A stretch of DNA of 64,000 nucleotides from Bacteroidales bacterium (GCA_028282585.1 JANQHR010000052.1:68571-132570); one strand, 5' to 3'. Counted from the stretch's first letter, positions 1 to 15,246 are shown. The notes: generated by a model from the sequence alone, not told the origin. Numbers and translations are program-made.

Positions 1-1
1 A

Positions 2-850
2 ATTGATATTACTATTTATATTGACCCTGCAACAAGCCAGTCTTTTAAAAATATGGTAATGAGTTCCTTAAAGGAGTTTACTTCACAGCTAGAGATTGAA
101 ATGTTTTTTAAGAACTTTTCGGAAGCCATGGCTCAAATGATGCCAGGCCAAAAACCTATAAAATTTGAAAGCTTTGAAACCATAAAGTACCAGGAAGTTT
201 ATGCTTCAACAACAAAGGATGAAATGCTTCCAAATTCGGTTCAACATAATGTACCTGCATGGACTATGTTCGCAATGTTCTTTATTGTACTGCCACTAGC
301 TGGAAACATTATTAAAGAACGGGATGATGGAAGTGCTTTCCGTTTAAAAACAATGCCAGGGTCTTTTGTTACAGTTATGTTTAGTAAGATTTTTGTATTT
401 CTAGGTGTAGCATTTTTACAGTTTATTTTAATGCTAATGGTTGGTGTTTACATCATGCCACTAATGGGATTGCCACAGTTGGAAATTGGCCCTCATAAAA
501 TTGCATTAGGTGTTATGGCAATTGCTTCCGGGTTAGCCGCAACAGGTTACGGAGTTGCTATTGGAACTATCGCAACTACCCATGAACAAGCAGCCACTTT
601 TGGTGCTGTTTCAATTATCATTTTTGCAGCTTTAGGCGGCATTTGGGTTCCGGTATATGTAATGCCTCATACAATAAGAATTATCAGCCAGTTCTCTCCT
701 CTTCATTGGGGGTTAAATGGCTTTTATGATATATTCCTTCGTGGCGGTGATATTTCTGTAGTAATCGCTGAAACTGCAAAATTGTTGCTGTTTTTTGTAA
801 TCATGCTATTAATAGCAGTTGCTTATAATAAGTACACAAAAACCAAATAA
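2..850 (+). CDS. ABC-2 type transporter permease (5'-partial), flexirubin/APE cluster-associated
   Basis: Frame is open from base 2 (IDITIYIDPATSQSFKNM...). PNSVQHNVPAWTMFAMFF, ERDDG and SPLHW motifs plus several hydrophobic helices. Confidence 0.85.
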   Translation: MDITIYIDPATSQSFKNMVMSSLKEFTSQLEIEMFFKNFSEAMAQMMPGQKPIKFESFETIKYQEVYASTTKDEMLPNSVQHNVPAWTMFAMFFIVLPLAGNIIKERDDGSAFRLKTMPGSFVTVMFSKIFVFLGVAFLQFILMLMVGVYIMPLMGLPQLEIGPHKIALGVMAIASGLAATGYGVAIGTIATTHEQAATFGAVSIIIFAALGGIWVPVYVMPHTIRIISQFSPLHWGLNGFYDIFLRGGDISVVIAETAKLLLFFVIMLLIAVAYNKYTKTK

Positions 851-855
851 ATCCC

Positions 856-891
856 AGGTTCATAGTTTAAAGTACAAAGTTTAAAAGTTTT
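856..891 (+). repeat. Left heptamer array of cassette 1 (consensus AAGTTYA)
   Basis: aggttca tagttta aagtaca aagttta (a) aagtttt read directly from the sequence. Confidence 0.8.
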
Positions 892-898
892 ATATTTA

Positions 899-1288
899 AT
901 GGCAGCATTTACAAAATTTGAAGATATTGAAGCTTGGAGAAAAGCTCGTGAATTATGCAAGCTTATCTTTGAAATAACTGAAAAAGACAAGTTTTCCAGA
1001 GATTTTTCTTTAAAAGACCAAATTAGAAGATCTTCTGGTAGTGTAATGGACAATATTGCTGAAGGCTTTGAAAGAGGTGGAAGAAAAGAATTTATACAAT
1101 TTCTTTTTATTTCAAAATCATCTTGTGCTGAAACAAAATCACAGTTATATCGGGCACTTGATTATAAATATATTGACAAAAATGAATTGAATAAATGGTA
1201 TGAGAAAGCTTGCGAATGCACAAAACTCATTGTTGGATTAATCAATTATCTCAAATCATCTAGTGTTAAAGGCCTAAAGTATTTATAA
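899..1288 (+). CDS. Four helix bundle protein (TIGR02436 / 23S rRNA IVP family)
   Basis: FEDIEAWRKA...LKDQIRRSSGSVMDNIAEGFERG...EFIQFL..S..S..E is the family signature; 129 aa. Confidence 0.92.
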   Translation: MAAFTKFEDIEAWRKARELCKLIFEITEKDKFSRDFSLKDQIRRSSGSVMDNIAEGFERGGRKEFIQFLFISKSSCAETKSQLYRALDYKYIDKNELNKWYEKACECTKLIVGLINYLKSSSVKGLKYL

Positions 1289-1298
1289 AATCACTTTG

Positions 1299-1333
1299 AA
1301 AACTTTGAACTGTAAACTTTGAACTAAGAACTA
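1299..1333 (-). repeat. Right heptamer array of cassette 1, inverted relative to 856-891
   Basis: aaaactt tgaactg taaactt tgaacta agaacta; reverse complement is tagttct tagttca aagttta cagttca aagtttt. Confidence 0.8.
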
Positions 1334-1420
1334 TTAAAACATTGTTAATAATTTAAAACATAATATGCTAACTTTTAATCCATAGAGCTTAATTTAGCAG
1401 TTTGTTAAAAAAATAGAAAA

Positions 1421-1849
1421 TTGGAAAAGAAACCACTAATACATAGAACTGAAATCGTTGTAAGGTTTAGTGAAGTAGATTCGATGGGAATCGTATGGCA
1501 TGGTAATTATGCCAAATACTTTGAAGATGGCCGTGAAGCATTTGGGAAGGCTTTGGGCTTAAGTTACCTGGATGTTTATGCAAACAAGCACCTCACTCCT
1601 CTTGTTAAACTTGATTTTGAGTACAAAACTCCTCTTGAATATGGAGATTCAGCAATTATAGAAACAAGGTATATTGACCATGATGCTGCTAAAATTCATT
1701 TTGAATATACCATATACAACAAAAAAAATAACAAGGTTGCTGCAACCGGAGAAAGCATTCAGGTGTTTTTAAATCTAGAAAGAGAATTGGTTTTAATTGC
1801 TCCTGATTTTTTCCTTGAATGGAAAAGAAAAATGGGACTCCTTGAATAA
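1421..1849 (+). CDS. Acyl-CoA thioesterase (4HBT/YbgC hot-dog family)
   Basis: VRFSEVDSMGIVWHGNYAKYFEDGRE motif; TTG start. Confidence 0.9.
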   Translation: MEKKPLIHRTEIVVRFSEVDSMGIVWHGNYAKYFEDGREAFGKALGLSYLDVYANKHLTPLVKLDFEYKTPLEYGDSAIIETRYIDHDAAKIHFEYTIYNKKNNKVAATGESIQVFLNLERELVLIAPDFFLEWKRKMGLLE

Positions 1850-1885
1850 TGAACATCGATTAACGAATATAGAATTAAGAAATGG
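1844..1885 (+). repeat. Left heptamer array of cassette 2 (GAWnnnn units)
   Basis: gaataat gaacatc gattaac gaatata gaattaa gaaatgg; overlaps the upstream stop (1847-1849) and the downstream ATG (1882). Confidence 0.85.
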
Positions 1886-2265
1886 CAAAGACATTGACAA
1901 AATATGATTTAGAAGAAAGACTGATTAATTTTTCAGTATTGATAATTGATATAGTTAATGAAATGCCAAATACAAAAGCAGCAAATCATCTTTCGGGACA
2001 ACTTGTTCGTTCTGGTACTTCGCCCGCTCTTAATTATGGTGAAGCGCAAAGTGCAGAATCAAGAAAGGATTTCATTCATAAGATGAAGGTTATTCTTAAA
2101 GAATTAAGAGAAACATTTGTGTGTTTGAAGATAATTCATCGATGTAAATTGTTTAAAACAGAAGAAAAAATTATAATAGCTAAAGAAGAAAATAATGAGC
2201 TTATTTCAATATTTGTAAAAAGCATCGAAACAGCAAAAAACAATTTAAATTCCAATAAATCTTAA
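1882..2265 (+). CDS. Four helix bundle protein (TIGR02436 family)
   Basis: DLEERL..F....QLVRSGTSPALNYGEAQSAESRKDFIHKMKVILKELRET signature; 127 aa. Confidence 0.92.
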   Translation: MAKTLTKYDLEERLINFSVLIIDIVNEMPNTKAANHLSGQLVRSGTSPALNYGEAQSAESRKDFIHKMKVILKELRETFVCLKIIHRCKLFKTEEKIIIAKEENNELISIFVKSIETAKNNLNSNKS

Positions 2266-2296
2266 ATCGTTAATCTGTGTTCGATGTTCGATATTC
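2255..2296 (-). repeat. Right heptamer array of cassette 2, inverted relative to 1844-1885
   Basis: ataaatc ttaaatc gttaatc tgtgttc gatgttc gatattc; the reverse complement contains exact gaacatc and gattaac units. Confidence 0.85.
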
Positions 2297-2333
2297 AAAT
2301 AAGAATTGAATATGATTTAAGAAGATTAATAAA

Positions 2334-3494
2334 ATGAATAAAATTTACACAATAGCAGACAACATAATATCATCTTTGGGCTTTACAAGCAAAGAAAACT
2401 TTGAGAACCTTAAGCAAGGCATATCTGGAATCAAACAAACATCAGACCCTAAAATTACACAGGTTCCAATGCAATGTTCTTTAGTTAATACAGAGAAATT
2501 AAATTCGGAATTTGAAAAAATTGGAAAACCTGAAGGATATACACGCCTGGAGAAACTAATGATATTATCTATCGCAGATTGCTTAAAACAATCAGGTGTA
2601 GATTCTACAAGTGAAGACACTTTGTTTATTTTTTCATCGGTTAAAGGAAATATCGATTTAATTGAGGATGAAAACCATCCTTTTGAAGAAGACAGAATAA
2701 ACCTGTGGGCAATATCTGATGCAATTTGTAATTTCTTCAAGGCGAAAAATGAAGCAATTTTTGTATCGAATGCATGCATTTCAGGTGCCACAGCTATCAT
2801 AACGGCAGCCCAATATTTATCCGCTAAAAAATATAAAAATGCCATTGTTTGCGGTGGTGATATTATTTCTGAATTTACACCTTCTGGTTTTCAATCGTTC
2901 AAAGCAGTGAGCGAAGAGCCTTGTAAACCTTTTGATGCAAACAGGAATGGTATCACTTTAGGCGAAGGTGCTGGTACAATTATTTTAACTGCTGATAAAG
3001 ATTTAGTTAAAGAAGAAAATCCAATAGTTTTCAGAGGTGGGGCAAATACAAATGATGCAAACCATATTTCAGGGCCATCGAGAACTGGAGATGGATTATA
3101 TTATGCAATCAGAAATGCACTAAACCAAGCAAATAAAACCAATACTGAAATCGACTACATTTCGGGGCATGGAACGGCAACTCCATACAACGATGAAATG
3201 GAATCGAAAGCCATTTCATGGGCCGGGCTTAAACATGTTCCCGTTAATAGCCTGAAAGGCTACTGGGGGCACACTTTAGGAGCTGCAGGAATCATTGAAA
3301 GTATTGCTGGAATTCATTCTATAAAGGAAAACTGTTTAATAAGAACGAATGGATTTTCTGAACATGGTGTTAGTGAAGCAATTAATGTAATCAATGAATT
3401 TAAGGAAACTGAAGTAAAGAATTTCTTAAAAACAGCTTCTGGTTTTGGTGGTAGTAATGCCGCAGTTTATTTTTCTGAATTAAATGCTGATTAA
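2334..3494 (+). CDS. Beta-ketoacyl-ACP synthase (KAS I/II type)
   Basis: Catalytic motifs NACISG, GHGTAT, GHTLGAAG and C-terminal SGFGGSN. Confidence 0.9.
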   Translation: MNKIYTIADNIISSLGFTSKENFENLKQGISGIKQTSDPKITQVPMQCSLVNTEKLNSEFEKIGKPEGYTRLEKLMILSIADCLKQSGVDSTSEDTLFIFSSVKGNIDLIEDENHPFEEDRINLWAISDAICNFFKAKNEAIFVSNACISGATAIITAAQYLSAKKYKNAIVCGGDIISEFTPSGFQSFKAVSEEPCKPFDANRNGITLGEGAGTIILTADKDLVKEENPIVFRGGANTNDANHISGPSRTGDGLYYAIRNALNQANKTNTEIDYISGHGTATPYNDEMESKAISWAGLKHVPVNSLKGYWGHTLGAAGIIESIAGIHSIKENCLIRTNGFSEHGVSEAINVINEFKETEVKNFLKTASGFGGSNAAVYFSELNAD

Positions 3495-3529
3495 TTAGAA
3501 AATTGAAAATAGAAAATTATTAGAACATT

Positions 3530-3964
3530 ATGTCTTATATTAGAATTTGGTTACATTGTGTTTGGGGAACTAAAAAGCGAATTCCTTTTCTAACAAAAGA
3601 CAATAAATGGGATATTATAAACCATATTAAAGATAATGCAAAGGCAAAAGGCATTTACATAAATTTTATTAATGGAAACAAAGAGCATATTCATTGTATA
3701 ATTTCGCTTAAGGCTGATGAAGCCTTATCTAAAACTATTCAATTAATTAAGGGAGAATCTTCATTTTGGATAAATAAAAACAGTTTATCAAAAGGTAAAT
3801 TTGAATGGGCGGATGAATACTTTGCTGTTTCAATTAGTGAATCTCAAGTGCCTAAAGTAAGGGATTACATAAAGAATCAAGAAGAGCATCATAGCAATAA
3901 AACATGGAAAGAAGAATATGAAGAATTTATACAAAAGTATAATTTCGAAAAGATTAAGGGCTAA
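3530..3964 (+). mobile_element. tnpA: IS200/IS605-family Y1 HUH transposase, probably REP-associated (RAYT-like)
   Basis: HCVWGTKKR, EHIH (HUH), IKGESSFW, W...YFAVS and YIKNQEEHH (catalytic Tyr); no tnpB. Confidence 0.88.
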
Positions 3965-4050
3965 AGCCCTCGTTATTTTGAGGATTTATAACCCCAGCCT
4001 TAAGGCTGGGGTTAAAGAAAATACCCTTGAATGGACTTTAGTCCCTTAAT
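3953..4050. repeat. REP/REPIN-like palindromic element downstream of tnpA
   Basis: attaagggctaaagccct (3953-3970) is inverted against tggactttagtcccttaat (4032-4050). A perfect 26-bp palindrome taaccccagccttaaggctggggtta lies between them (3989-4014). Confidence 0.85.
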
Positions 4051-4069
4051 TTACTTAATTACCACGTTT

Positions 4070-4699
4070 ATGGAAAACATCATATCAAAATATTGCATTA
4101 TACAACCGCATAAGGTTATAGTTGATGGAAAATCAGAATTAATCGATCCTGAGAAAAGCGAATTCGGAGCATTCATGAAATCCATCTATAAACATTACGA
4201 TATAAAGTATCCAAAGTATTTTAAAATGGATAACCTATGCAAGATTGCTTTTATTGCATCCGAAATTGTATTGAAAGGAAATGAACATATCAAGGAATTG
4301 GACCCTACCAAAGTAGGTGTGATTTTACAAAACTCGCATTCATCCATAGATACAGATACTAAATACAACGATACTATTAAGGATAAATCAAACTACTTTC
4401 CAAGCCCGGCAGTATTTGTTTATACCTTGCCCAACGTAATGATTGGCGAAATTTGTATTCGAAATAAGTTTCAAGGTGAAAATACCTGTTTTATAGCCAA
4501 ACAATTCAACCCCGAATTTGTAACTGAATATGTAGGCGAACTGTTAGGTTCTGGCAAGTTAGATGCTTGTATTGCCGGGTGGGCAGATTACATGGATGGA
4601 GAATACAGTTCGATGTTGTTTTTAGTTGAAAAAAATAAGGAAAATAAAAAAGATAGTATTAGTTTTAACCCCCAAATCATAAATGGATTAATTAAGTAA
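4070..4699 (+). CDS. Ketosynthase N-terminal-like / chain length factor protein of flexirubin-type clusters
   Basis: YPKYFKMDNLCK and PSPAVFVYTLPN motifs. Start moved to ATG 4070 because the 4031 start lies inside the REP. Confidence 0.75.
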   Translation: MENIISKYCIIQPHKVIVDGKSELIDPEKSEFGAFMKSIYKHYDIKYPKYFKMDNLCKIAFIASEIVLKGNEHIKELDPTKVGVILQNSHSSIDTDTKYNDTIKDKSNYFPSPAVFVYTLPNVMIGEICIRNKFQGENTCFIAKQFNPEFVTEYVGELLGSGKLDACIAGWADYMDGEYSSMLFLVEKNKENKKDSISFNPQIINGLIK

Positions 4700-4705
4700 A
4701 TAGAA

Positions 4706-4960
4706 ATGGAAGAGTTAATTTTAAAGATTAAAGAACAAGTAATAGAGGTATTGAATTTAGAAGATATTGAGCCAGCAGATATTGATACAGATGCACCATT
4801 ATTTGGTGATGGTTTAGGGCTTGATTCAATTGATGCATTAGAATTGATCGTATTATTAGAAAAACAATATGGAATAAAAATCGAAGACCCAAAAGACGGA
4901 AAAAAGATTTTTTATTCAATTAGGACAATTGCTGAATACATCGAAGAAAAAAAGAAATAA
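4706..4960 (+). CDS. Acyl carrier protein
   Basis: LFGDGLGLDSIDALE phosphopantetheine site; acidic, 84 aa. Confidence 0.95.
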   Translation: MEELILKIKEQVIEVLNLEDIEPADIDTDAPLFGDGLGLDSIDALELIVLLEKQYGIKIEDPKDGKKIFYSIRTIAEYIEEKKK

Positions 4961-4981
4961 TATTTGATAAAGGATTTGTAG

Positions 4982-6181
4982 ATGTCAAAGAGGGTATTTG
5001 TAACAGGCATAGGAATTATATCAGGAATCGGAAATAATGTAGAAGAAACACTTCAATCTCTTAAAGAGAAAAAATCCGGAGTAGAAGATATCAAGTATCT
5101 TCAAACCAACCACAAAGGTGTCATTCCTGTTTCGGAAGTAAAGTTATCTGAAGAAGAATTGATTAAAAGAGCCGGATTGCCTCAAGGTGAACCTTATACT
5201 CGATCGACTCTAATTGGTATAATTGCTGCTGACGAAGCAGTTAAAAATGCTCAGATTAATGATATCAAAGAATGTAAAACCGGATTGATATCCGGAACTA
5301 CTGTTGGTGGAATGGACAAAAGCGAGCTTTATTACAGAGACCTTTTAGAAACTACAAACCATATCGAATATATCGAAACCCACGATTGTGGTGATAGTAC
5401 TGAGCGAATTGCTGATTACATTGGGATTAAGGATTTTGTTTCAACTACAAGTACTGCGTGTTCATCCGCTGCTAATTCAATGATATTAGGAGCCAGAATG
5501 ATCAAAAACGGTTTACTAGACCGTTGTGTTGCAGGTGGAATCGAATCATTAACCAAATACCACATGAATGGCTTTAACACATTAATGATTCTTGACCGTG
5601 AACCGTGTAAACCTTTTGATGAAAACAGAAAAGGTTTAAACCTTGGTGAAGGAGCTGCCTTTCTGGTGTTAGAATCTGAAGAGATGGTTCAAAAATCTGG
5701 TAAAAAAGTGCTTGCTGAATTAACGGGTTATGGAAACTCATGTGAAGCTTTCCATCAAACAGCTTCTACTCCTGAAGGTAAAGGTGCATATGCAGCCATG
5801 AAAGAAGCTTTGGAAAGAAGCGGGTTAAAGCCGGAAGATATTGATTATGTGAATGCTCATGGTACAGGAACAGATAACAATGACCTTTCAGAAGGAAGAG
5901 CTATTGAAAACATTTTTGGTAAGAATATTCCTAAGGTAAGTTCAACTAAATCGTATACCGGGCACACAACAAGTGCTGCAGGTGGTGTTGAAGCAGTTAT
6001 ATCAGTTCTTACCTTACAGCACAACATGATTTTCCCGAACCTGAATTTTAAAGAGCAAATGAAAGAACTTAAATTCAAACCTGTAACTGAAGTTATAGAA
6101 AATGTTAAGGTCGACCATGTACTATCCAATTCTTTTGGTTTCGGAGGTAATAATTCAGCGTTAATTTTCTCAAGATATTAG
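4982..6181 (+). CDS. Beta-ketoacyl-ACP synthase (aryl polyene-type KS)
   Basis: TACSSA, NAHGTGT, GHTTSAAG, NSFGFGGNN. Confidence 0.92.
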   Translation: MSKRVFVTGIGIISGIGNNVEETLQSLKEKKSGVEDIKYLQTNHKGVIPVSEVKLSEEELIKRAGLPQGEPYTRSTLIGIIAADEAVKNAQINDIKECKTGLISGTTVGGMDKSELYYRDLLETTNHIEYIETHDCGDSTERIADYIGIKDFVSTTSTACSSAANSMILGARMIKNGLLDRCVAGGIESLTKYHMNGFNTLMILDREPCKPFDENRKGLNLGEGAAFLVLESEEMVQKSGKKVLAELTGYGNSCEAFHQTASTPEGKGAYAAMKEALERSGLKPEDIDYVNAHGTGTDNNDLSEGRAIENIFGKNIPKVSSTKSYTGHTTSAAGGVEAVISVLTLQHNMIFPNLNFKEQMKELKFKPVTEVIENVKVDHVLSNSFGFGGNNSALIFSRY

Positions 6182-6182
6182 T

Positions 6183-7247
6183 ATGGAAGTTTACATAAAA
6201 GGCATCGGTAATATATCTCCTCAAAATACTACAGATAGCAAAGTATTTTTAGATGAAGTTGTGAATCACGAATCTGATTTTCTTTCTTGTATTGAACCCA
6301 ATTATAAAGAATTTATTAATCCCATTCAGCTTCGCCGAATGAGTAAACTGATAAAAATGGGGATCAGTGCTTCAAAAATTTGTTTGCAGGATGCTGGTGT
6401 TGAAGAACCAGGTGCAATTATTACCGGAACAGGACTGGGGTTGGTTGGTGATACTGAAAAATTCCTGAACCAGGTTTTAGACCATAATGAGGAACTTCTT
6501 GCCCCCACTGCTTTTATTCAATCAACGCACAATACAATTAGCGGGCAGGTTGCAATTGCCTTAAAATGCTTTAAATACAACAATACATACTCGCACCGCG
6601 GTTTTTCCTTTGAAAGTGCGCTTTTAGATGGAATGCTGTTGGTTGAAAATAAGGATGCTGGCCATGTTTTGGTTGGCGGTTTCGATGAAATCACTGGTGA
6701 ACACTATAAAATCATCAAAAAAACAAAGTGGGTAAAAGATGAAACTATAAAAAGCCTTGAACTAATTGATCATAAAACGCAAGGAACCATTGTTGGCGAA
6801 AGTGTTGCTTTCTTTACGTTAACTGGTAAGAAAGATGAAAACACGTACGCAAAAATTCAAGATATTAAGACCATATATAAACCTGAAAACAACCATGAAA
6901 TTGAAACTAAAATCGATGAATTCTTAGCTAAAAATAAGCTAAAAAAGCAAGATATTGATTTGGTGGTTTTAGGTTTAAATGGAAACGTTGACACTGATGA
7001 TGTTTACCTTCATCTAGCAGATAACTATTTCAATACAAATTATGCTTATTTCAAGCACCTTTCCGGTGATTACCACACGGTTGGTTCATTTGCATTATGG
7101 TTTGCTGCAAATTCAATTAAACATCAGAATGTACCAGAAGTAGCTCGTTTCAGAAAAGAAAACTTTACTGAAAAACCAATAAAAAACGTATTGGTATACA
7201 ATCATTTTAGAAAAGTTGACCATTCAATATTTTTATTAACTCAATGA
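6183..7247 (+). CDS. Ketosynthase chain length factor
   Basis: RRMSKLIKMG and PTAFIQSTHNT; lacks the catalytic Cys/His motifs; directly follows the KS. Confidence 0.82.
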   Translation: MEVYIKGIGNISPQNTTDSKVFLDEVVNHESDFLSCIEPNYKEFINPIQLRRMSKLIKMGISASKICLQDAGVEEPGAIITGTGLGLVGDTEKFLNQVLDHNEELLAPTAFIQSTHNTISGQVAIALKCFKYNNTYSHRGFSFESALLDGMLLVENKDAGHVLVGGFDEITGEHYKIIKKTKWVKDETIKSLELIDHKTQGTIVGESVAFFTLTGKKDENTYAKIQDIKTIYKPENNHEIETKIDEFLAKNKLKKQDIDLVVLGLNGNVDTDDVYLHLADNYFNTNYAYFKHLSGDYHTVGSFALWFAANSIKHQNVPEVARFRKENFTEKPIKNVLVYNHFRKVDHSIFLLTQ

Positions 7248-8005
7248 TCAAACCAAGAACTACATTCGTTCTTTACATCATTGTTTTAATCCTGGTTTAT
7301 CTCTTTCTTCCATGGAAAGGGATATTTTTTACTCTATTAACAGTCTTATTTTTAGCTCATTTAGTTTATTGCTCGGTAAATATTTGCTCTCAAGCTTACA
7401 TTAAAACCTTTTGCAAACGCGATACACAAGAAAAAAAGATAGCCATCACTTTTGATGATGGGCCGGATTCAGAAATTACTCCGAAGGTTTTAGAGATATT
7501 AGACGAGTTCGCTGTAAAAGCTACTTTCTTTTGTATCGGAAATCAAATCGAACGCAATAGAGATATCTTAAAAGCGTTAGATTCAAAAGGGCATTTAATT
7601 GGTAATCATAGCTATTCGCACGAGTTTTGGTTCGATTTATACCCGGCAAATAAGATGCAAGAAGATATTAAAAAAACAAATGGACTGATTTTTGAAACAA
7701 TTGGTAAAAAAACGAAGCTGTTCCGCCCTCCTTATGGTGTTACAAACCCTTCTTTAAAGAAAGCTATTAAGGATTTAGGTTTTAATACTATTGGATGGAG
7801 CATACGTTCTTTAGATACTGTAAGCAAAACTGAAAAAACTATTCAACGAATTAAGAAAAAATTATCACCGGGAGATATGATATTATTTCATGATAACAGA
7901 GAACAAATAATTCTAATCTTAAAAGAGTTTATAGATTATACCAAATCCGAAGGATATGAGATTGTTCCTCTCGACGAATTATTAAATATACAAGCTTATG
8001 AATAA
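7244..8005 (+). CDS. Polysaccharide deacetylase (CE4/NodB), membrane anchored
   Basis: TFDDGP, HSYSH, RPPYG, LFHD; N-terminal transmembrane segments. Confidence 0.9.
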   Translation: MIKPRTTFVLYIIVLILVYLFLPWKGIFFTLLTVLFLAHLVYCSVNICSQAYIKTFCKRDTQEKKIAITFDDGPDSEITPKVLEILDEFAVKATFFCIGNQIERNRDILKALDSKGHLIGNHSYSHEFWFDLYPANKMQEDIKKTNGLIFETIGKKTKLFRPPYGVTNPSLKKAIKDLGFNTIGWSIRSLDTVSKTEKTIQRIKKKLSPGDMILFHDNREQIILILKEFIDYTKSEGYEIVPLDELLNIQAYE

Positions 8006-8636
8006 GATATTAAGTACTATAATCAGCCTCTTTTTATTTATTACCATTTTAAATGCTCAGGAAAATGGATTTTCTAAGGTTAAGGATATGGAAAAAACGA
8101 AGTCGGATTTATCAAAATTAACAGAAAACACTTCAGCCATAAAGAGTCAATTTGTACAGGAAAAACATCTAAGTTTTTTAACTGAGAATATAAGGTCAAA
8201 AGGTGAATTTTACTTCAAAAGCCCTAATTCGCTTCGTTGGGAATATTCAGAGCCATTCGAATATATTATCGTATTCAATGATAAAAATATTATGATTAAA
8301 GATGGTGCTAAAATCAGCACATATGATACTGAATCAAACAAAATGTTTAGCGAAATCAATAATATGATGATTGGTACTATTCAGGGCAATTTATTTACAG
8401 ATAACGAACGGTTTGATGTAGAATATTTTGAAAATGCTTCTCAATATTTGCTTGAACTGGATCCCAAATTACCTGAAATGAAAAGTATGCTGAAAACAAT
8501 CAAAATATTCATTGATAAATCAGATATTTCAGTGGCTAAAATTAAAATGATTGAAAGTTCAGATGATTATACCAGTATTGAATTCATAAACAGAAAACTG
8601 AACCAGGAAATAAAAGAATCCATCTTTAAACTATAA
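7998..8636 (+). CDS. LolA-like outer-membrane lipoprotein carrier protein
   Basis: Signal peptide; F.QEKHLSFL...SKG.FYFK.P..LRWEY..P. Confidence 0.85.
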   Translation: MNKILSTIISLFLFITILNAQENGFSKVKDMEKTKSDLSKLTENTSAIKSQFVQEKHLSFLTENIRSKGEFYFKSPNSLRWEYSEPFEYIIVFNDKNIMIKDGAKISTYDTESNKMFSEINNMMIGTIQGNLFTDNERFDVEYFENASQYLLELDPKLPEMKSMLKTIKIFIDKSDISVAKIKMIESSDDYTSIEFINRKLNQEIKESIFKL

Positions 8637-8654
8637 CTATTTTACTTTTTAATA

Positions 8655-9344
8655 ATGAATATTGAACACCGAACACCGAATCTAGAAATAAAACAAATCT
8701 TTCGTATTTCGTCATTCATAATTCGATATTCGGTATTTCTAATTATTGTATTTCTATCAAGTTGTGCCAATCCCCATAAAAATCTGCCAAGTACTGAATT
8801 AAGAGTATCAGAAATTAAAAATATCCCTTATGCCCTTCCTTATACCGATAAAGCAATCATATACAAAACAGATATCAGCTTTTATAAAAATGATATTAGT
8901 GGATTATTGATCATTAAAAGAACAGACGAAAATGTATATCGTATTGCTTTAACCACCCAATTCGGCTTAAAGATATTTGATTTTGAATTGAACCATGGAG
9001 AACTCAAGGTAAAGTATTGTGTTGAATATTTAAATAAAAAAGTAATCCTAAACACATTTGAAACAGATTTCAACCTGCTTTTATTGCAAAACAAATTTGA
9101 TAGCATACAAAGAATACAAAACCAGAAACAAAATCAAACTATCTGGCAATTAAAATCGGGCAAATTAAACTACAACTATATAGAGGATGTAAATTCGCAA
9201 AATGTTGTACGCATTAGCTTTAAGAAGAGAAATTCTGAAAAAATTTCAGTAGGTTTGTATGCGTACCGAGGTGATATTCCAGGAGAAATAAAGTTGGAGC
9301 ATCACAACATAAAACTAAAAATGGATTTAAAATTGATTCAATAA
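8655..9344 (+). CDS. Putative lipoprotein of flexirubin-type clusters
   Basis: Lipobox FLSSC; SGLLIIK...FGLKIFDF; lies between lolA-like and dehydratase genes. The N-terminus is encoded by repeat arrays. Confidence 0.7.
   Translation: MNIEHRTPNLEIKQIFRISSFIIRYSVFLIIVFLSSCANPHKNLPSTELRVSEIKNIPYALPYTDKAIIYKTDISFYKNDISGLLIIKRTDENVYRIALTTQFGLKIFDFELNHGELKVKYCVEYLNKKVILNTFETDFNLLLLQNKFDSIQRIQNQKQNQTIWQLKSGKLNYNYIEDVNSQNVVRISFKKRNSEKISVGLYAYRGDIPGEIKLEHHNIKLKMDLKLIQ
8657..8739. repeat. Gene-less inverted heptamer array pair (empty cassette-2-type element)
   Basis: gaatatt gaacacc gaacacc gaatcta gaaataa, a 5-bp spacer, then atctttc gtatttc gtcattc ataattc gatattc ggtatttc. Confidence 0.8.
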
Positions 9345-9718
9345 TGCTTTTAAAAGATTTTTATACCCTTGCTGAATTAGATAAAAGTGATCAAGAAAAC
9401 TTCAAAGCCATCATCGATCTAAATAAGGATCATGAAGTATACAAGGGCCATTTTCCAGGCAATCCTGTTGTTCCGGGCGTTTGCTTAACGCAATTGATAA
9501 AGGAAATCATGGAGACTGCTGAAAACAAAGAATTGAACCTTGTTTATGCCGATAATATCAAATTTATGTCAGTTGTAAATCCTGAGGTAAACAGCAGGCT
9601 TCAGATCGACTTGAAAGTAAAATACGATGACGAACAAAACCTAATTAAGGTAAATAGTGTTACTCATTTTAACGATCAGGTTTTTTACAAATTTAAAGGT
9701 AACTTTAGGGCAAAGTAA
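9344..9718 (+). CDS. 3-hydroxyacyl-ACP dehydratase (FabZ/ApeI-like)
   Basis: HEVYKGHFPGNPVVPGVC motif. Confidence 0.9.
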   Translation: MLLKDFYTLAELDKSDQENFKAIIDLNKDHEVYKGHFPGNPVVPGVCLTQLIKEIMETAENKELNLVYADNIKFMSVVNPEVNSRLQIDLKVKYDDEQNLIKVNSVTHFNDQVFYKFKGNFRAK

Positions 9719-9730
9719 AATTTTTGGGGA

Positions 9731-10939
9731 ATGGATTTGGAAAAGTACCGCGAGATATTTAGGGAGAAAAAGTGCTGTGTAATTATACCCACTTATAATA
9801 ATGATCAAACCATTGAAAAAGTTGTTTCTGATGTGTTGAAATATACCAATCAGGTTATTGTTGTTAACGATGGATCAACAGACCAAACAGGCGATATTTT
9901 AAGCAAGATCAGTGAAGTTGATGTTGCAAGTTATCCTAAAAACAAAGGAAAAGGGTACGCTTTAAAAACCGGCTTTAAATATGCATGGAAAAGTGGTTAT
10001 GAATATGCAATCACCATTGATTCCGACGGGCAACATTTTGCTTCGGATTTGCCAAAATTTGTAGAAGCCATTAATGAAAATCCAAATTCCATTATAATTG
10101 GAAATAGAAATATGGAACAGGATGGTATTCCTGGGAAAAGTAGTTTTGGAAACCGCTTTTCCAATTTCTGGTTTAAGTTCGAAACTGGAATTTCAATGCC
10201 TGATACCCAATCAGGATACAGGCTTTATCCTTTAAAGCCATTGAGTAAAATGCGCTTGTTCACCAATAAATACGAATTAGAAATAGAAGTTATCGTAAGA
10301 GCAGCCTGGAGAGGTGTTGACGTAACTCATCTTCCAATTCAAATTTATTATGCCCCGAAAGAAACAAGAGTTTCTCATTTTAAACCTTTCATAGATTTTA
10401 CAAGAATAAGTATTTTGAATACGATTTTGGTTATTTATGCATTGCTAGTTGCTAAGCCCTTTGCTTTTGTTAAGAAATTAAATAAAAAGAATATCCAGGA
10501 ATTCTTTAGAGATCAAATATTACAAAATAAGGAACCAAATATCAAGATTACATTTGCCATTATGCTTGGTTTGTTTATGGGTGTTGCACCAGTGTGGGGA
10601 TACCAGATGCTGATTGCTTTTGCTTTAGCGCATATTCTAAAATTGAATAAAGTGATTGTATTAGTTGCTTCTAATATCAGCATCCCTCCTATGATTCCGA
10701 TTGTACTTTTTGCCAGTTTTAAAACAGGAGGATTTTTTGTTGAAGCCAATAAGCTTAACCTGCGCTTTGATTCAAGTATTAGTCTGGATTTAATTAAGGA
10801 CAACCTAACTCAATATGTTGTTGGTAGTCTAGTATTTGGAATTTTACTAGCTTTAACCTTTGGTATTGTTACTTATATTTTACTTCTTATCTTTCGGAAA
10901 AAACCGGTATTACAAAAAGAGTATGTTAAATTAGATTAA
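9731..10939 (+). CDS. GT2 glycosyltransferase with C-terminal DUF2062-like membrane domain
   Basis: IIPTYNN, VNDGSTD, NKGKG, IDSDGQH, DTQSGYRLYPL; hydrophobic C-terminus. Confidence 0.88.
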   Translation: MDLEKYREIFREKKCCVIIPTYNNDQTIEKVVSDVLKYTNQVIVVNDGSTDQTGDILSKISEVDVASYPKNKGKGYALKTGFKYAWKSGYEYAITIDSDGQHFASDLPKFVEAINENPNSIIIGNRNMEQDGIPGKSSFGNRFSNFWFKFETGISMPDTQSGYRLYPLKPLSKMRLFTNKYELEIEVIVRAAWRGVDVTHLPIQIYYAPKETRVSHFKPFIDFTRISILNTILVIYALLVAKPFAFVKKLNKKNIQEFFRDQILQNKEPNIKITFAIMLGLFMGVAPVWGYQMLIAFALAHILKLNKVIVLVASNISIPPMIPIVLFASFKTGGFFVEANKLNLRFDSSISLDLIKDNLTQYVVGSLVFGILLALTFGIVTYILLLIFRKKPVLQKEYVKLD

Positions 10940-10980
10940 GTACTTAAAGTGATCTAAAGTTTATAAGTGTCTAAAGTTAT
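10937..10980 (+). repeat. Left 8-10-mer array of cassette 3 (TAAAGT core)
   Basis: taagtact taaagtgatc taaagttta taagtgtc taaagttat; fills the whole gap from the upstream stop to the ATG. Confidence 0.75.
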
Positions 10981-11349
10981 ATGAATAATAAAGAGTTTAG
11001 CCAAAAATTAGAAACCAGAACCAAAGAATTTGCTAAAAGCATTATTAAACTCTCGGCAAGTCTCGAAAAATCATCAGAAAATAATGTAATTAAAAATCAA
11101 GTTACAAAATCAGGAACAAGTATTGGTGCAAATTATAGAGAAGCAAACCGGTCAAGAAGTCGAGCTGATTTTACGAATAAAATTAAAATTTGTGAAAGCG
11201 AAGCAAATGAAACCGTATACTGGTTAGAAATTATATCAGAAATGAATCTAGTAAAACTCGAAATAATCAGGCCAATTTTGATGGAAGCAAGAGAAATACT
11301 TGCTATTTTTACAACTATTAGCAAAAATGTTAAACTTAAGGCATTTTAG
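10981..11349 (+). CDS. Four helix bundle protein (TIGR02436 family)
   Basis: LETRTKEFA...NQVTKSGTSIGANYREANRSRSRADFTNKIKICESEANETVYWLE; 122 aa. Confidence 0.92.
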   Translation: MNNKEFSQKLETRTKEFAKSIIKLSASLEKSSENNVIKNQVTKSGTSIGANYREANRSRSRADFTNKIKICESEANETVYWLEIISEMNLVKLEIIRPILMEAREILAIFTTISKNVKLKAF

Positions 11350-11370
11350 GCACTTTTAATTTTAGGCAAT
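11331..11370 (-). repeat. Right array of cassette 3, inverted relative to 10937-10980
   Basis: Reverse complement is attgcc taaaatta aaagtgcc taaaatgcc ttaagttta. Confidence 0.72.
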
Positions 11371-11375
11371 TCAAC

Positions 11376-14300
11376 ATGTCAAGTATATTTTATTCCATTT
11401 ATAATCTATTCCGAAAATTTAGAGTTTCATTCATCTTTCTAATCCTATTTATATTTGGCGTTTCAGCCTATTTGGTTACCAAAATCAATTTCGAGGAAGA
11501 TATTACCCGGATGCTTCCTTCTGATAAAAATATCCAAAGAATTAGCGAAGTCTCACAGAATATCAATTTTATGGATAGGATCATAATTAACCTTTCCTTA
11601 TCAGATACTTCAATATCAGATCCAAACAAACTAATTGAATGTGCCGATATCCTTAATGAAGAACTCAAAAAACACCAACCGGAACTAATAAAAAATATGG
11701 ATTACCAGGTTTCCGAACAGGTAATGAACGAGGTTTATGATGTTTTTTTTAATAACCTGCCTATCTTTTTAGAAGAAAGAGATTATCAAAAGATCGATAG
11801 TTTACTGGATAAATCCTCCATCGAAAATTCAATTAAGAATAACTTTAAAACACTGATATCTCCGGCAAGTATGGTTCTGAAACAATATGTAATGAAGGAT
11901 CCACTTCATTTAACACCCATTGTTTTAAAACGATTAAATAGTTTCCAGGTTGGAGATAACTATGAAATATACAATAGCCGGATTTTCACTAAAGATAAAA
12001 AGAACCTTAGCTTATTTTTAACTTCCGCATATCCATCTGGAGAAACCAAAAAAAATGGTAAGTTAATTTCGATTATAGATCAAAACATCGATAGCCTGGC
12101 ACTACAATTTAACCAGGAAATTAGTATACAGTATTATGGTGCAGCTGCAGTGGCCGTTGGAAATGCCAATCGTATAAAAAGCGATATTCAGCTTACTGTT
12201 ACTATAGCTCTCATAATTTTATTAATTTTTATGAGCCTGTTTTTCAGAAAGAAAAGCATATTCCTGATTTTATTCCTTCCTGCTGTTTTTGGTGGTAGTT
12301 TATCATTAGCTATTCTCTTCCTGATTAAAGGCAAAATATCGGCTATTTCACTTGGAATAGGATCTGTTTTACTAGGTATTACTGTAGATTATTCCTTACA
12401 CCTTTTTACGCACTACCGAAGTATTGGCGATGTAAAAAAAGTATTGAAAGATATCTCCACCCCCGTTTTAATGAGTACGCTAACAACAGCCTCAGCTTTT
12501 TTATGTTTACTTTTCGTTAGTTCCAAAGCACTGCAGGATCTGGGTTTATTTGCAGCCATTAGCGTAGTGGTAGCTGCATTATTTTCTTTGATTGTTCTAC
12601 CTCACTTCTTGCGAAGAAAAGATTATGAAAAAGTACACCAAAGGGAACAAAAATCTTTAATTGAGAAAATTACTTCTTACCCTTACGAGAAAAACAAGTA
12701 CTTAATTCTTGTAATAGTTGCATTTACCATTGTTTCTTTTTTCTTTTCAAGAAAAACATCATTCGATGGAGATATGGATAAAATGAGTTACCTATCGCCT
12801 GAATTGAAAGAAGCCGAAGACAATCTTAATAAAATAGCCAATGTAACCTTAAAATCGGTTTACCTGATAAGTACCGGTGAAAATTTACAAGACGCTTTAG
12901 CCAATAACGAAAGAGCAATTCCAAAGCTGGAAAATTTAAAGAATAAGGGAATTGTTAACCAGTACACCAATATAAGTGCTGTTTTAATTTCAGATTCATT
13001 GCAAAAAGAAAGAATAAAAAGGTGGAACATATTTTGGACCAAAGAAAAAACTGAAAAATTAAAGCAGAATCTCCAAAAGTCAGGCGAAAAATTCAAGTTC
13101 CGGCCCAATGCTTTTTCTTCTTTTTATCAATTATTAGATAAGGAATTCAATGCTGTTCAGCAAGAAGATTTAAAAGGATTACGGGAATTATTTGTTGATG
13201 ATTTTATCACTGAAAAGGAAAATATAACCACGGTTATAAGCATTCTAAAAGCAGATGAGTTGGATAAACCAACTATCTACGAAACTTTTTCTGAAAATAA
13301 TGACCTGGTAGTTTTCGATAAAAAGTACATGGCCGATAACCTGGTTCGCATATTGAAGGGTGATTTCAACTTACTTGTTAAGGTATCATTAGGAATCGTA
13401 TTTTTAATCCTGCTATTATCATTTGGCAGAATAGAATTAGCATTGTTAACTTTTATTCCAATGTCAGTTTCTTGGATATGGACTCTTGGTATAATGGGAA
13501 TTCTAGGCATTAAATTCACCATCTTCAACATTATTATTTCTACATTCATTTTCGGGTTAGGAATTGATTATTCCATTTTCATTATGCGGGGATTATTACA
13601 AGAATACAAATATGGAATTAAAAACTTGGATTCATACAAAACATCTATCTTCCTTTCCGGAGTTACCACCATTACAGGAATTGGTGTTTTAATTTTTGCA
13701 CAGCACCCTGCTTTAAAATCCATGGCTGTTTTATCCATTATTGGTATACTTTCTGTGATTATTATATCCTATACGTTGGAACCTGCACTGTTTAACTTAT
13801 TTCTCTTAAATCGAAAGAAAAAAGGTAAAATAGCCTATACTTTTCAAGAGTTTTTAAGCTCTCTTTTAGCATGGTCTATATTTATCATTGGTTCGATATA
13901 TACAACGTTTGTAGGCTTTATTTTATTCAGGGTATTACAAATTAAAAATAAGAAAGTACAGCTGTTTTTTAATTACTCCATGGTTTTTTCATCTTCTGCG
14001 CTCTTTTATGGAATGCTTAATATTCAAAAGAGAATTCTTAATCCAAATAAAGAAGATTTTAAAAAGCCATGTGTGATTATATGTAACCATCAATCGTATA
14101 TCGACCTTATTTACAATATGTCTATTAATCCAAAAATTATTATTCTAACAAACGATTGGGTTCAAAAAAATAAGATATATGGCAGGTTGGTTCAGATGGC
14201 TGATTTTTATCCTGTTTCGGAAGGTTACGAGGCTATTCTTCCTAAATTAAGGGCTAAAGTTGAAAGCGGTTTTTCCATATTGGTTTACCCTGAAGGTACC

Positions 14301-15245
14301 AGGTCTGTAAATTTTAAAATGAAAAGGTTCCATAAAGGAGCTTTCTATATCGCTGAAAAATTAAACCTTGATATTCTTCCAATTGTACTGCATGGAACCG
14401 GTTTTTGCATGACTAAAGGAGATGATTTATTACTAAAAAATGGAACCGTAACAGCTAAATACCTTGATAGGATAAGCCCTGATAATAAAGAATATGGCGA
14501 AAACTATTCGAAACGTGCAAAAGGCATTGGCAAGTACTTTAGGGAAGAATATAATAAGCTACGCTTTGAACTCGAGGATACTAAATACTATAAAAACCAA
14601 CTAATAAAAAATTACATTTTTAAAGGCCCCGTATTAGAATGGTACTTGCGTATTAAATTAAGAATGGAAAAGAACTACGAATTATTTAATTCTTTAATTC
14701 CACGTGCCGCTAAAATATACGATATTGGTTGCGGTTATGGTTACCTTTCTTATATGTTGCATTTTGTATCGGAAGAACGAAAGATAACAGGTGTAGATTA
14801 TGATAATGAAAAGATTCAAGTGGCAAAAAATTGTAATTCTAAAAACGAATACATTCATTTTGATTGTGCGGATATAACACAATATAATTTTGAACCTGCA
14901 GATGTTTTTATTTTAAGTGATGTATTGCATTACTTTCCTAAAGAAGGGCAGGAAATAGTTGTTGCCAACTGCATTCAAAACCTGAATGATGGCGGAATGG
15001 TAATTATACGCGATGCAAATACAAATTTAAAGGGGCGGCATAAAGGAACTAAATTTTCGGAGTTTCTTTCAACAAAAATTATTGGGTTTAATAAAACAAA
15101 AGATGAGTCAAAACAGTTATACTTTCTTTCATCAGATGATATTTTAGGTATGTTCAGCAAGCATAATATGGAAGTAGAAATTGTCGACCAAACTAAATTA
15201 ACGTCGAATGTAGTTTATATAATTAGAAAGAACCAAACTAATTAA
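11376..15245 (+). CDS. Trifunctional MMPL exporter / PlsC acyltransferase / class I SAM methyltransferase
   Basis: Two transmembrane bundles with GITVDYSLH and GLGIDYSIF; NHQSYID and PEGTRS acyltransferase motifs; DIGCGYG SAM motif. Confidence 0.9.
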   Translation: MSSIFYSIYNLFRKFRVSFIFLILFIFGVSAYLVTKINFEEDITRMLPSDKNIQRISEVSQNINFMDRIIINLSLSDTSISDPNKLIECADILNEELKKHQPELIKNMDYQVSEQVMNEVYDVFFNNLPIFLEERDYQKIDSLLDKSSIENSIKNNFKTLISPASMVLKQYVMKDPLHLTPIVLKRLNSFQVGDNYEIYNSRIFTKDKKNLSLFLTSAYPSGETKKNGKLISIIDQNIDSLALQFNQEISIQYYGAAAVAVGNANRIKSDIQLTVTIALIILLIFMSLFFRKKSIFLILFLPAVFGGSLSLAILFLIKGKISAISLGIGSVLLGITVDYSLHLFTHYRSIGDVKKVLKDISTPVLMSTLTTASAFLCLLFVSSKALQDLGLFAAISVVVAALFSLIVLPHFLRRKDYEKVHQREQKSLIEKITSYPYEKNKYLILVIVAFTIVSFFFSRKTSFDGDMDKMSYLSPELKEAEDNLNKIANVTLKSVYLISTGENLQDALANNERAIPKLENLKNKGIVNQYTNISAVLISDSLQKERIKRWNIFWTKEKTEKLKQNLQKSGEKFKFRPNAFSSFYQLLDKEFNAVQQEDLKGLRELFVDDFITEKENITTVISILKADELDKPTIYETFSENNDLVVFDKKYMADNLVRILKGDFNLLVKVSLGIVFLILLLSFGRIELALLTFIPMSVSWIWTLGIMGILGIKFTIFNIIISTFIFGLGIDYSIFIMRGLLQEYKYGIKNLDSYKTSIFLSGVTTITGIGVLIFAQHPALKSMAVLSIIGILSVIIISYTLEPALFNLFLLNRKKKGKIAYTFQEFLSSLLAWSIFIIGSIYTTFVGFILFRVLQIKNKKVQLFFNYSMVFSSSALFYGMLNIQKRILNPNKEDFKKPCVIICNHQSYIDLIYNMSINPKIIILTNDWVQKNKIYGRLVQMADFYPVSEGYEAILPKLRAKVESGFSILVYPEGTRSVNFKMKRFHKGAFYIAEKLNLDILPIVLHGTGFCMTKGDDLLLKNGTVTAKYLDRISPDNKEYGENYSKRAKGIGKYFREEYNKLRFELEDTKYYKNQLIKNYIFKGPVLEWYLRIKLRMEKNYELFNSLIPRAAKIYDIGCGYGYLSYMLHFVSEERKITGVDYDNEKIQVAKNCNSKNEYIHFDCADITQYNFEPADVFILSDVLHYFPKEGQEIVVANCIQNLNDGGMVIIRDANTNLKGRHKGTKFSEFLSTKIIGFNKTKDESKQLYFLSSDDILGMFSKHNMEVEIVDQTKLTSNVVYIIRKNQTN

Positions 15246-15246
15246 T

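Follow-up and report, generated by a model that had tools for sequence, protein, structure and literature searches.

Four-helix-bundle genes between inverted repeat arrays

The stretch of DNA analysed here, hereafter the window, is a 64,000-nucleotide (nt) part of the genome of a Bacteroidales bacterium (contig C116:68571-132570 of the source genome G000, which comprises 4.9 Mb in 173 contigs). Between lipid-synthesis genes of the + strand it carries three small open reading frames (ORFs), also on the + strand, which belong to the TIGR02436/PF05635 family of four-helix-bundle proteins. Each has an array of short tandem repeats upstream and an inverted version of that array downstream, and we call the whole unit of array, ORF and inverted array a cassette. 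The observation is confirmed, and it is general to the family rather than a local oddity. The parts of the three cassettes are as follows, with the ORFs assigned by profile matches.

857-898, + strand: cassette 1 5′ arm, roughly five degenerate units of 7 nt each, GTTYAWA type, which occupy the spacer after the ABC-2 permease stop
899-1288, + strand: cassette 1 ORF, 129 amino acids (aa), TIGR02436/PF05635 four-helix-bundle (Avd/S23p-like)
1280-1337, + strand: cassette 1 3′ arm, built of AACTTTG-type reverse-complement units, starting within the last ORF codons
1842-1880, + strand: cassette 2 5′ arm, GAAnnnn/GATTAAC-type 7-nt units, overlapping the thioesterase stop codon
1882-2265, + strand: cassette 2 ORF, 127 aa, TIGR02436/PF05635
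2260-2298, + strand: cassette 2 3′ arm, TTCGATG type, overlapping the ORF stop codon
10928-10980, + strand: cassette 3 5′ arm, TCTAAAGT-core units at 8-10 nt spacing, directly 3′ of the GT2 stop codon
10981-11349, + strand: cassette 3 ORF, 122 aa, TIGR02436/PF05635
11311-11372, + strand: cassette 3 3′ arm, ATTTTAGGCA-type units, beginning within the ORF and ending 4 nt short of the next ATG

A first-pass annotation of this DNA had described three TIGR02436-type genes running in the direction of their operon, and this is borne out. All three lie on the + strand, and for cassettes 1, 2 and 3, respectively, they score 112.8, 74.9 and 84.5 bits against TIGR02436 (curated cut-off 24) and 117.5, 46 and 69.3 bits against PF05635 (curated cut-off 33.8). 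The proteins are also as divergent as had been described, with pairwise identities of only 23-28%. The cassette 1 protein matches PDB 2gsc (E 3.6e-10) and the PHROG entry “Avd protein of DGR” (diversity-generating retroelement; E 1.7e-4). The solved structures of the family, 2gsc and 2rld, were deposited with five chains each, and sequence likeness to them suggests that the window proteins are four-helix-bundle homopentamers. PADLOC returned no defence-system match.

A repeat search recovered an inverted repeat of 25 nt in cassette 1 (858-882 / 1300-1324, 88% complementary) and one of 39 nt in cassette 2 (1842-1880 / 2260-2298, 74%); in cassette 3, direct repeats lie within the 5′ arm (10953-10961 / 10970-10978) and within the 3′ arm (11343-11355 / 11359-11371). 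We folded the whole cassettes (461-501 nt) by minimum free energy (MFE) and compared the duplex energy of their flanks with that of 300 shuffles. The predicted folds enclose the ORFs of cassettes 1, 2 and 3 with 36, 31 and 41 long-range pairs; the stem of cassette 1 joins 857-898 to 1280-1325 (36 pairs) and that of cassette 3 joins 10928-10980 to 11311-11362 (41 pairs, including G.U). The flank duplex energies were matched by 0, 0 and 3 of the 300 shuffles (z -6.5, -4.3 and -2.6), and they stand at the 1.0, 0.7 and 1.7 percentile among 3747 other ORFs of the genome.

Tandem Repeats Finder (TRF) at score 30 reported arrays in only two of the six window arms, namely downstream of cassette 1 (1301-1325, period 7, 3.6 copies) and downstream of cassette 2 (2278-2296, period 7, 2.7 copies); at this score none was reported for either arm of cassette 3 or for the upstream arms of cassettes 1 and 2. 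In each cassette the spacer ahead of the ORF is taken up by degenerate short tandem units, whose reverse complement sets in at or before the stop codon. Read by eye, tandem heptamers stand ahead of the start codon in cassettes 1 and 2, and cassette 3 is built from units of 8-10 nt. The initial description of 5-6 tandem repeats with an inverted copy at each gene holds for the inverted flanks and the stems, while “5-6” was generous.

The inverted arrays across the family and beyond the phylum

The source genome contains 20 matches to the family, which merge to 18 loci, six of them broken by stops or splits, and the family is present in all 31 genomes of the genus, with 1-19 matches each. Two further copies share the window's contig. 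At C116:65145-65528, approximately 3 kb upstream of the window start, stands another intact cassette, the fourth, whose arrays have 8-nt units of the AATGATTA type; at C116:35994-36301, approximately 32 kb upstream, is a frameshifted four-helix copy. A crude control set of 3800 ORFs was drawn from the same genome. Flank duplexes there average -23.6 kcal/mol at four-helix genes and -16.0 kcal/mol at other genes (12 vs. 3747 genes, P=3.5e-5), and TRF arrays adjoin eight of the 18 four-helix loci as against 217 of 3787 other genes.

The family sample comprises 114 distinct cassettes with 100-nt flanks, taken from the source genome, 30 congeners and 16 loci of other taxa; these are for the most part from 31 genomes related to each other, with many orthologues among them. 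A flank-to-flank inverted repeat at z>3 relative to shuffles was found in 72 of the 114 cassettes (63%) and in 2.9% of 684 control genes. The best autocorrelation lag was 7 nt in 71/114 upstream flanks (controls 123/789) and 74/114 downstream flanks (controls 105/789). The sense strand is G-rich upstream in 86 and C-rich downstream in 80 of the 114, and controls are without such skew. The inverted repeats, the lag-7 excess and the TRF arrays all agree that arrays are far commoner at four-helix genes than at other genes. Arm statistics come from a separate run with 71 cassettes at z>3, where the median arm measures 33 nt (approximately 4.7 units), with 79% identity between arms. Between the end of the 5′ arm and the ATG there are 12 nt, and in 40 of the 71 the 3′ arm begins inside the ORF.

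An independent sample of five genomes from other phyla (Enterovibrio, Chloroflexi, Verrucomicrobia, Parcubacteria and Neomarinimicrobiota) gave a z>3 inverted repeat in 19 of 20 cassettes, and lag 7 was best in 13 upstream and 14 downstream flanks of the 20, also at high G+C. A Parcubacteria cassette (L148, genome G050), with CTGGAnn / TCCAGnn heptamers, lies within a 16S ribosomal RNA (rRNA) gene, as indicated by an Rfam small-subunit match; the conserved 16S 5′ end was read by eye upstream of the cassette, which is near the 5′ end of the gene. An intron of group I lies in this 16S gene as well (175-412; Rfam Intron_gpI, 58.9 bits). In Neomarinimicrobiota (L152, G051) we find a protein close to that of cassette 2 (hidden Markov model E 3.7e-41) between arms of the cassette 2 type, GAACAnnGATTAACGA / TCGTTAATC, with extra hairpin insertions in both flanks; likeness of both protein and arms hints at transfer of whole units between phyla. 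A variant build occurs in Chloroflexi (L138/L040, G048), in which a full TCAGTTn / ACTGAAA hairpin stands upstream of the ATG and an additional same-sense ACTGAAA array spans the stop codon.

The type of array is kept together with the type of protein, in line with the early suggestion that each protein subtype has its own repeat. Three cassette-2-type paralogues in the source genome (including those on C91 and C4), well diverged from each other, share the arm type, and their likeness extends from approximately 40 nt before the ATG to approximately 15-40 nt past the stop, with unlike sequence beyond. Overlap of upstream 6-mers between cassettes in unrelated contexts is 0.024 below 50% protein identity and 0.084-0.094 at 65% or more, and the share of pairs with an overlap above 0.1 goes from 2% to 33-38% as protein identity rises, with the limit that the filter for unrelated context passed at least one orthologous pair.

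Gain, loss and decay at operon junctions

The genes that border the cassettes in the window are listed below.

53-850, + strand: ABC-2 permease, upstream neighbour of cassette 1
1421-1849, + strand: 4HBT thioesterase, between cassettes 1 and 2
2334-3494, + strand: ketoacyl synthase, downstream neighbour of cassette 2
9731-10939, + strand: GT2/DUF2062, upstream neighbour of cassette 3
11376-15245, + strand: MMPL-acyltransferase-methyltransferase fusion, 1289 aa, downstream neighbour of cassette 3

We compared the orthologous permease-thioesterase-synthase stretch from 18 congeners. Cassette 2 is in none of these loci: the thioesterase/synthase junction measures 6-24 nt in 16 of them and 81-85 nt, with a one-sided heptamer array, in the other two. 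At the permease/thioesterase junction, two congeners carry an orthologous cassette 1, three an ORF-less array hairpin and one a remnant, and the remainder are empty. The arrays of the two orthologous cassettes are unlike those of the window, with pairing still kept. In the tree built from the flanking proteins, of which there are three, every locus with an ORF, a hairpin or a remnant belongs to a single clade of 10 genomes (support 100/99). Within it the ORF-less hairpins branch as sisters of loci with the ORF (93/93 and 99/98), and the eight outgroups are all empty. This fits a single insertion at the cassette 1 site, then ORF loss, then complete loss; repeated insertion is an alternative history for which the tree leaves room.

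Metagenome contigs from organisms approximately 90% identical to the source extend these comparisons, and filled and empty contigs are seen in relatives for all three window sites. One contig skips 849-1408 (cassette 1) yet retains cassette 2, a single run holds both a filled and an empty cassette 2 contig (the latter skipping 1837-2333), and a related contig skips 10930-11388 (cassette 3). The cassettes are thus insertion polymorphisms, gained and lost as units, and their decay passes through array hairpins that lack an ORF and ends in complete loss. The congeners and the empty contigs answer the question, raised at first pass, of whether the genes are fixed operon members: they are not. Window positions 1338-1420 (approximately 80 nt, a ...ttgttaataa...aatttagc... 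block) are common to the empty sites of relatives; cassette 1 was therefore inserted directly after the permease stop, and the conserved spacer may hold the thioesterase promoter.

Other insertions were noticed in the same kind of spacer. One congeneric permease/thioesterase spacer (L014, G020) is 267 nt long; a block in it is duplicated, and it also has a long hairpin, GC-rich and with no relation to the heptamer arrays. Relatives have a GC-rich perfect palindrome of 19-20 nt inserted after the cassette 2 stop (window 2268) and after 4002, and a similar palindrome breaks the 3′ arm of the C4 paralogue in the source genome, 3′ of the ORF that ends at 12542. The palindrome seems to be a distinct mini-element, similar to repetitive extragenic palindromes (REP-like), that lands in such spacers.

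Hairpins of inverted 6-7-nt arrays with no ORF were also read by eye in the source genome (C14:20980, C15:4628, C101:78770, C117:43399-43507, C90:1170, C92:60538-60634, C81:4614-4688 and C45:2380). Several are of the TTTCAGR type, for which the matching four-helix gene is absent from this genome, and at C45:2380 arms of the cassette 2 type stand approximately 30 nt apart. Genome-wide scans for array hairpins in the source genome gave 3/299 when strict and, in another form, 62 partners as against 70 with shuffled units. Since the scans were no better than controls, the ORF-less hairpins are given as by-eye examples, without a count.

The remaining members of the gene string include ketoacyl-synthase-like genes (three in all), an acyl carrier protein and FabA-like, LolA-like and polysaccharide-deacetylase-like genes, together with an IS200-like Y1 transposase ORF (3530-3964, 87.4 bits). 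Units of 7 nt (AATTAGA, AAATTGA, AAATAGA) lie upstream of the transposase ORF and two GC-rich palindromes (3955-3971 and 3991-4014) downstream. This gene is an insertion polymorphism too, as related metagenome contigs skip 3499-4070 or 3494-3916. The first-pass annotation had noted that no transposase lies inside the arrays and that no target duplication is seen; both statements stand, yet the gene string itself does include a transposase gene.

Orientation and selection

Both neighbours are co-directional with the four-helix gene in 86 of 102 cassettes and the downstream neighbour in 99 of 102, so that the downstream gene is opposed in only three. A median of 50 nt separates the ATG from the stop codon upstream. 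Among intact ORFs, 144 pairs at 70-95% identity give a dN/dS whose median, 0.11, indicates purifying selection. A sigma-70 promoter and terminator scan found nothing at the cassettes, and promoter-like sites were rarer than in shuffles, with the proviso that the consensus may not suit this organism. With no promoter signal found and the sense direction shared with neighbours, the cassette would ride on host transcription.

A proposed selfish cassette related to rRNA intervening sequences

That the cassettes are elements is well supported. The first-pass proposal of a modular element, with flanks predicted to loop out the ORF, has gained support from the folds, the controls and the presence/absence patterns. 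We propose that the array-ORF-inverted array units, placed in spacers of protein genes, are selfish cassettes and form one class with the intervening sequences (IVS) of rRNA that carry an ORF; we give this reading a probability of roughly 60%. The Avd/S23p-family gene of approximately 120 aa would occupy the loop of a hairpin with arms of approximately 33 nt, or 4-5 heptamers, one set directly against the start codon and the other running over the stop codon. Once transcribed, the arms would base-pair to give a double-stranded stem, which RNase III may cut, as in rRNA IVS; cleavage of this kind would free the RNA that carries the ORF and harmlessly break the host transcript in two. We suppose that the arrays change quickly by replication slippage, that a DNA-level process may keep the two arms alike and that the pentameric protein might bind its own repeat, as RNA or DNA.

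The likeness to rRNA IVS is considerable. In the accessible text on Coxiella burnetii, the 23S IVS has an S23p ORF, a 28-bp terminal stem and excision by RNase III, with three tandem GACAGAT heptamers, variable in number between strains, ahead of the S23p start codon; older proposals of IVS mobility are also reported there (PMC4990558). A preprint on the candidate phyla radiation (CPR) describes 23S_rRNA_IVP ORFs in 16S and 23S insertions, and a term search of its text found no mention of inverted or tandem repeats. The L148 cassette in a 16S gene is an example of such an ORF-bearing insertion in rRNA. IVS with an ORF (Coxiella, Leptospira and the CPR 23S_rRNA_IVP) thus share with the window cassettes, as far as those texts go, the protein family in the loop, the complementary termini (a 28-bp stem in Coxiella, arms with a median of 33 nt here), the variable-copy tandem heptamers immediately upstream of the start codon, and the sporadic distribution among close relatives with ORF decay. 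They differ in that the three window copies lie between protein-coding genes and none in rRNA; Rfam found no rRNA and no known RNA family in window positions 1-16000, only a chance snoRNA match (E 0.5). They also differ in selection, which is purifying on the ORFs here, while decay is described for the Coxiella ORF (PMC4990558), and in that RNase III excision is reported for the Coxiella IVS, whereas here the stems are predicted. The window cassettes are outside rRNA yet have the other testable features of IVS, and we therefore do not call them members of that group.

As for novelty, the Coxiella heptamers, stem and RNase III excision, as far as the accessible text describes them, came before, so that the first-pass impression of an undescribed architecture stands only for the part outside rRNA. 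The accessible IVS texts mention heptamers upstream only, in one species, and describe no family-wide rule of inverted arrays; full-text literature, with subscription journals and supplements outside the search, yielded no description of PF05635 genes flanked by inverted heptamer arrays at sites other than rRNA.

Several results weigh against our reading. Forty-two of the 114 cassettes are without a significant inverted repeat, the arms match at only approximately 79%, and orthology and kinship among the 114 mean that P values overstate. Cassette 3 is marginal: its stem is the weakest of the three (3/300 shuffles reach its energy), and at the DNA level it has short inverted matches only (15 nt at 73%; 10 nt at 90%). 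No target-site duplication is seen at the junctions compared (congener loci and paralogues of the source genome), and the aligned paralogues, being well diverged, give no sign of recent movement. Mismatches in the aligned arms number 106 G.U, 101 A.C and 447 transversions, the random expectation of approximately 1:2 with no wobble excess. Sense and antisense flank duplexes have -26.1 and -23.9 kcal/mol (n=16, p=0.27), without a strand signal. Since there is no G.U excess and both energies are alike, the complementarity looks maintained at the DNA level, and support for a transcription-linked role would come only from the orientation bias, the strand skew and precedent. Finally, the strong purifying selection, unlike the decay of the Coxiella ORF, could indicate a host function.

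Alternative explanations

A DNA-level hairpin element similar to REPINs or MITEs (miniature inverted-repeat transposable elements) would make the arrays terminal repeats for an enzyme acting in trans, e.g., a Y1/HUH transposase working on single-stranded hairpins, with the four-helix gene as cargo or cis-acting helper and RNA pairing as a by-product. The symmetry of G.U and A.C mismatches in the stems, the ORF-less array hairpins at the cassette 1 junction and elsewhere in the source genome (including C45:2380) and the polymorphic Y1_Tnp gene with its upstream heptamer array all speak for it, and REPIN-RAYT systems and MITEs indeed resemble the cassettes in their short hairpin-forming inverted repeats in spacers, their ORF-less copies and the presence of Y1_Tnp in this genome. 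We nevertheless hold it to be doubtful. Neither a target duplication nor a conserved terminal motif is seen; instead of a single conserved palindrome, the arms are tandem 7-nt arrays that vary between copies, and the paralogues are diverged rather than near-identical, as distinct from MITEs and terminal-inverted-repeat transposons. A symmetric DNA element alone also leaves the downstream co-orientation of 99/102 unexplained. The transposase itself is not supported as the mobiliser: the other full-length Y1_Tnp of the source genome (C9) is flanked by GC-rich palindromes and has no heptamer arrays, and the Y1_Tnp type of approximately 150 aa was not found in several rich carriers, namely G008 (15 four-helix matches), G042 (9) and G004 (11; 86% complete), nor in G044. 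The search did not find it in four of the 31 four-helix-carrying genomes and gave distant matches only in others such as G008.

A post-transcriptional module that serves the host, in which the protein would bind its own repeat stem in the operon mRNA and set the processing, stability or translation of neighbouring cistrons, is improbable in our view. It would suit the dN/dS of 0.11, the location of cassettes nearly always inside co-directional gene strings, the enclosure of start and stop regions by the stem and the binding of RNA stem-loops by Avd-family proteins, as given in the available part of a preprint (bioRxiv 10.1101/2023.10.23.563531). It sits poorly with presence and absence that vary between genomes with flanking proteins approximately 90% identical, with the unrelated host contexts, with the 6/18 broken loci of the source genome and with a unit of the same kind in an rRNA gene (L148). 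Very improbable is the absence of any element, with slippage-prone AT-rich spacers yielding heptamer arrays everywhere and the link to the gene due to chance or alignment artefact. The source genome does have 323 short-period arrays at the loosest TRF setting, mostly away from four-helix genes, and neither genome-wide scan for array partners in inverted orientation outperformed shuffled controls. This explanation is contradicted by the same-genome controls (inverted repeat 2.9% vs. 63%; lag 7 13-16% vs. 62-65%) and by recurrence of the pattern at high G+C in the Chloroflexi and Verrucomicrobia genomes.

Two other known systems can be set beside the cassettes. The Avd protein of DGRs is a homologous pentameric four-helix bundle, and PF05635 is the Avd family according to the text available (PMC10053308); Avd is described in the accessible part of the preprint cited above as binding RNA stem-loops, with a distal duplex that brackets the template. 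The cassettes here are dispersed singly among lipid-synthesis genes, with no template/variable repeat pair seen at them, and the source genome (98% complete) has 0 reverse transcriptase (RVT_1) matches, for which reason we rejected a DGR or other retro-mobility. An integron gene cassette has a single attC downstream and lies beside an integrase, whereas the repeats here stand on both sides and copies are dispersed across contigs.

Significance

The selfish-cassette reading also bears on intergenic heptamer arrays that earlier papers left unexplained. TAACTGA repeats are reported from Beggiatoaceae, Cyanobacteria and Bacteroidetes (PMC4679880), and GGGAATC arrays, mostly of four units and with 70-75 convergent inverted pairs per genome, from Xanthomonas (PMC4692102). 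In the accessible text of these two papers, the arrays resemble ours in their period of 7, their few units, often ending a few nt from a start codon, and their variable length between close relatives. A search of that text for the terms “23S”, “S23”, “intervening” and “four-helix” found none of them, and no link to this gene family is drawn there. It is possible, if tentative, that a single pan-bacterial selfish class of PF05635 genes with heptamer-array hairpins underlies rRNA IVS with ORFs, the scattered four-helix genes of operons and part of the intergenic heptamer excess and convergent pairs (Xanthomonas, Beggiatoaceae, cyanobacteria). The pentameric protein would then recognise its own arms by their 4-5 tandem units and promote copying or retention of the element, and ORF-less hairpins would be non-autonomous or decayed derivatives.

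The four-helix family is among the commonest unexplained small genes, and the architecture described here is a first handle on its function, in a form that can be tested: a hairpin of 7-nt arrays, a sense orientation, and gain and loss at operon junctions. It links these genes to rRNA intervening sequences, whose origin has been an open question since 1990, and it offers a candidate source for the intergenic heptamer arrays. As insertion polymorphisms inside operons and possible sites of RNA processing, the cassettes ought to be taken into account in operon prediction and comparative annotation.

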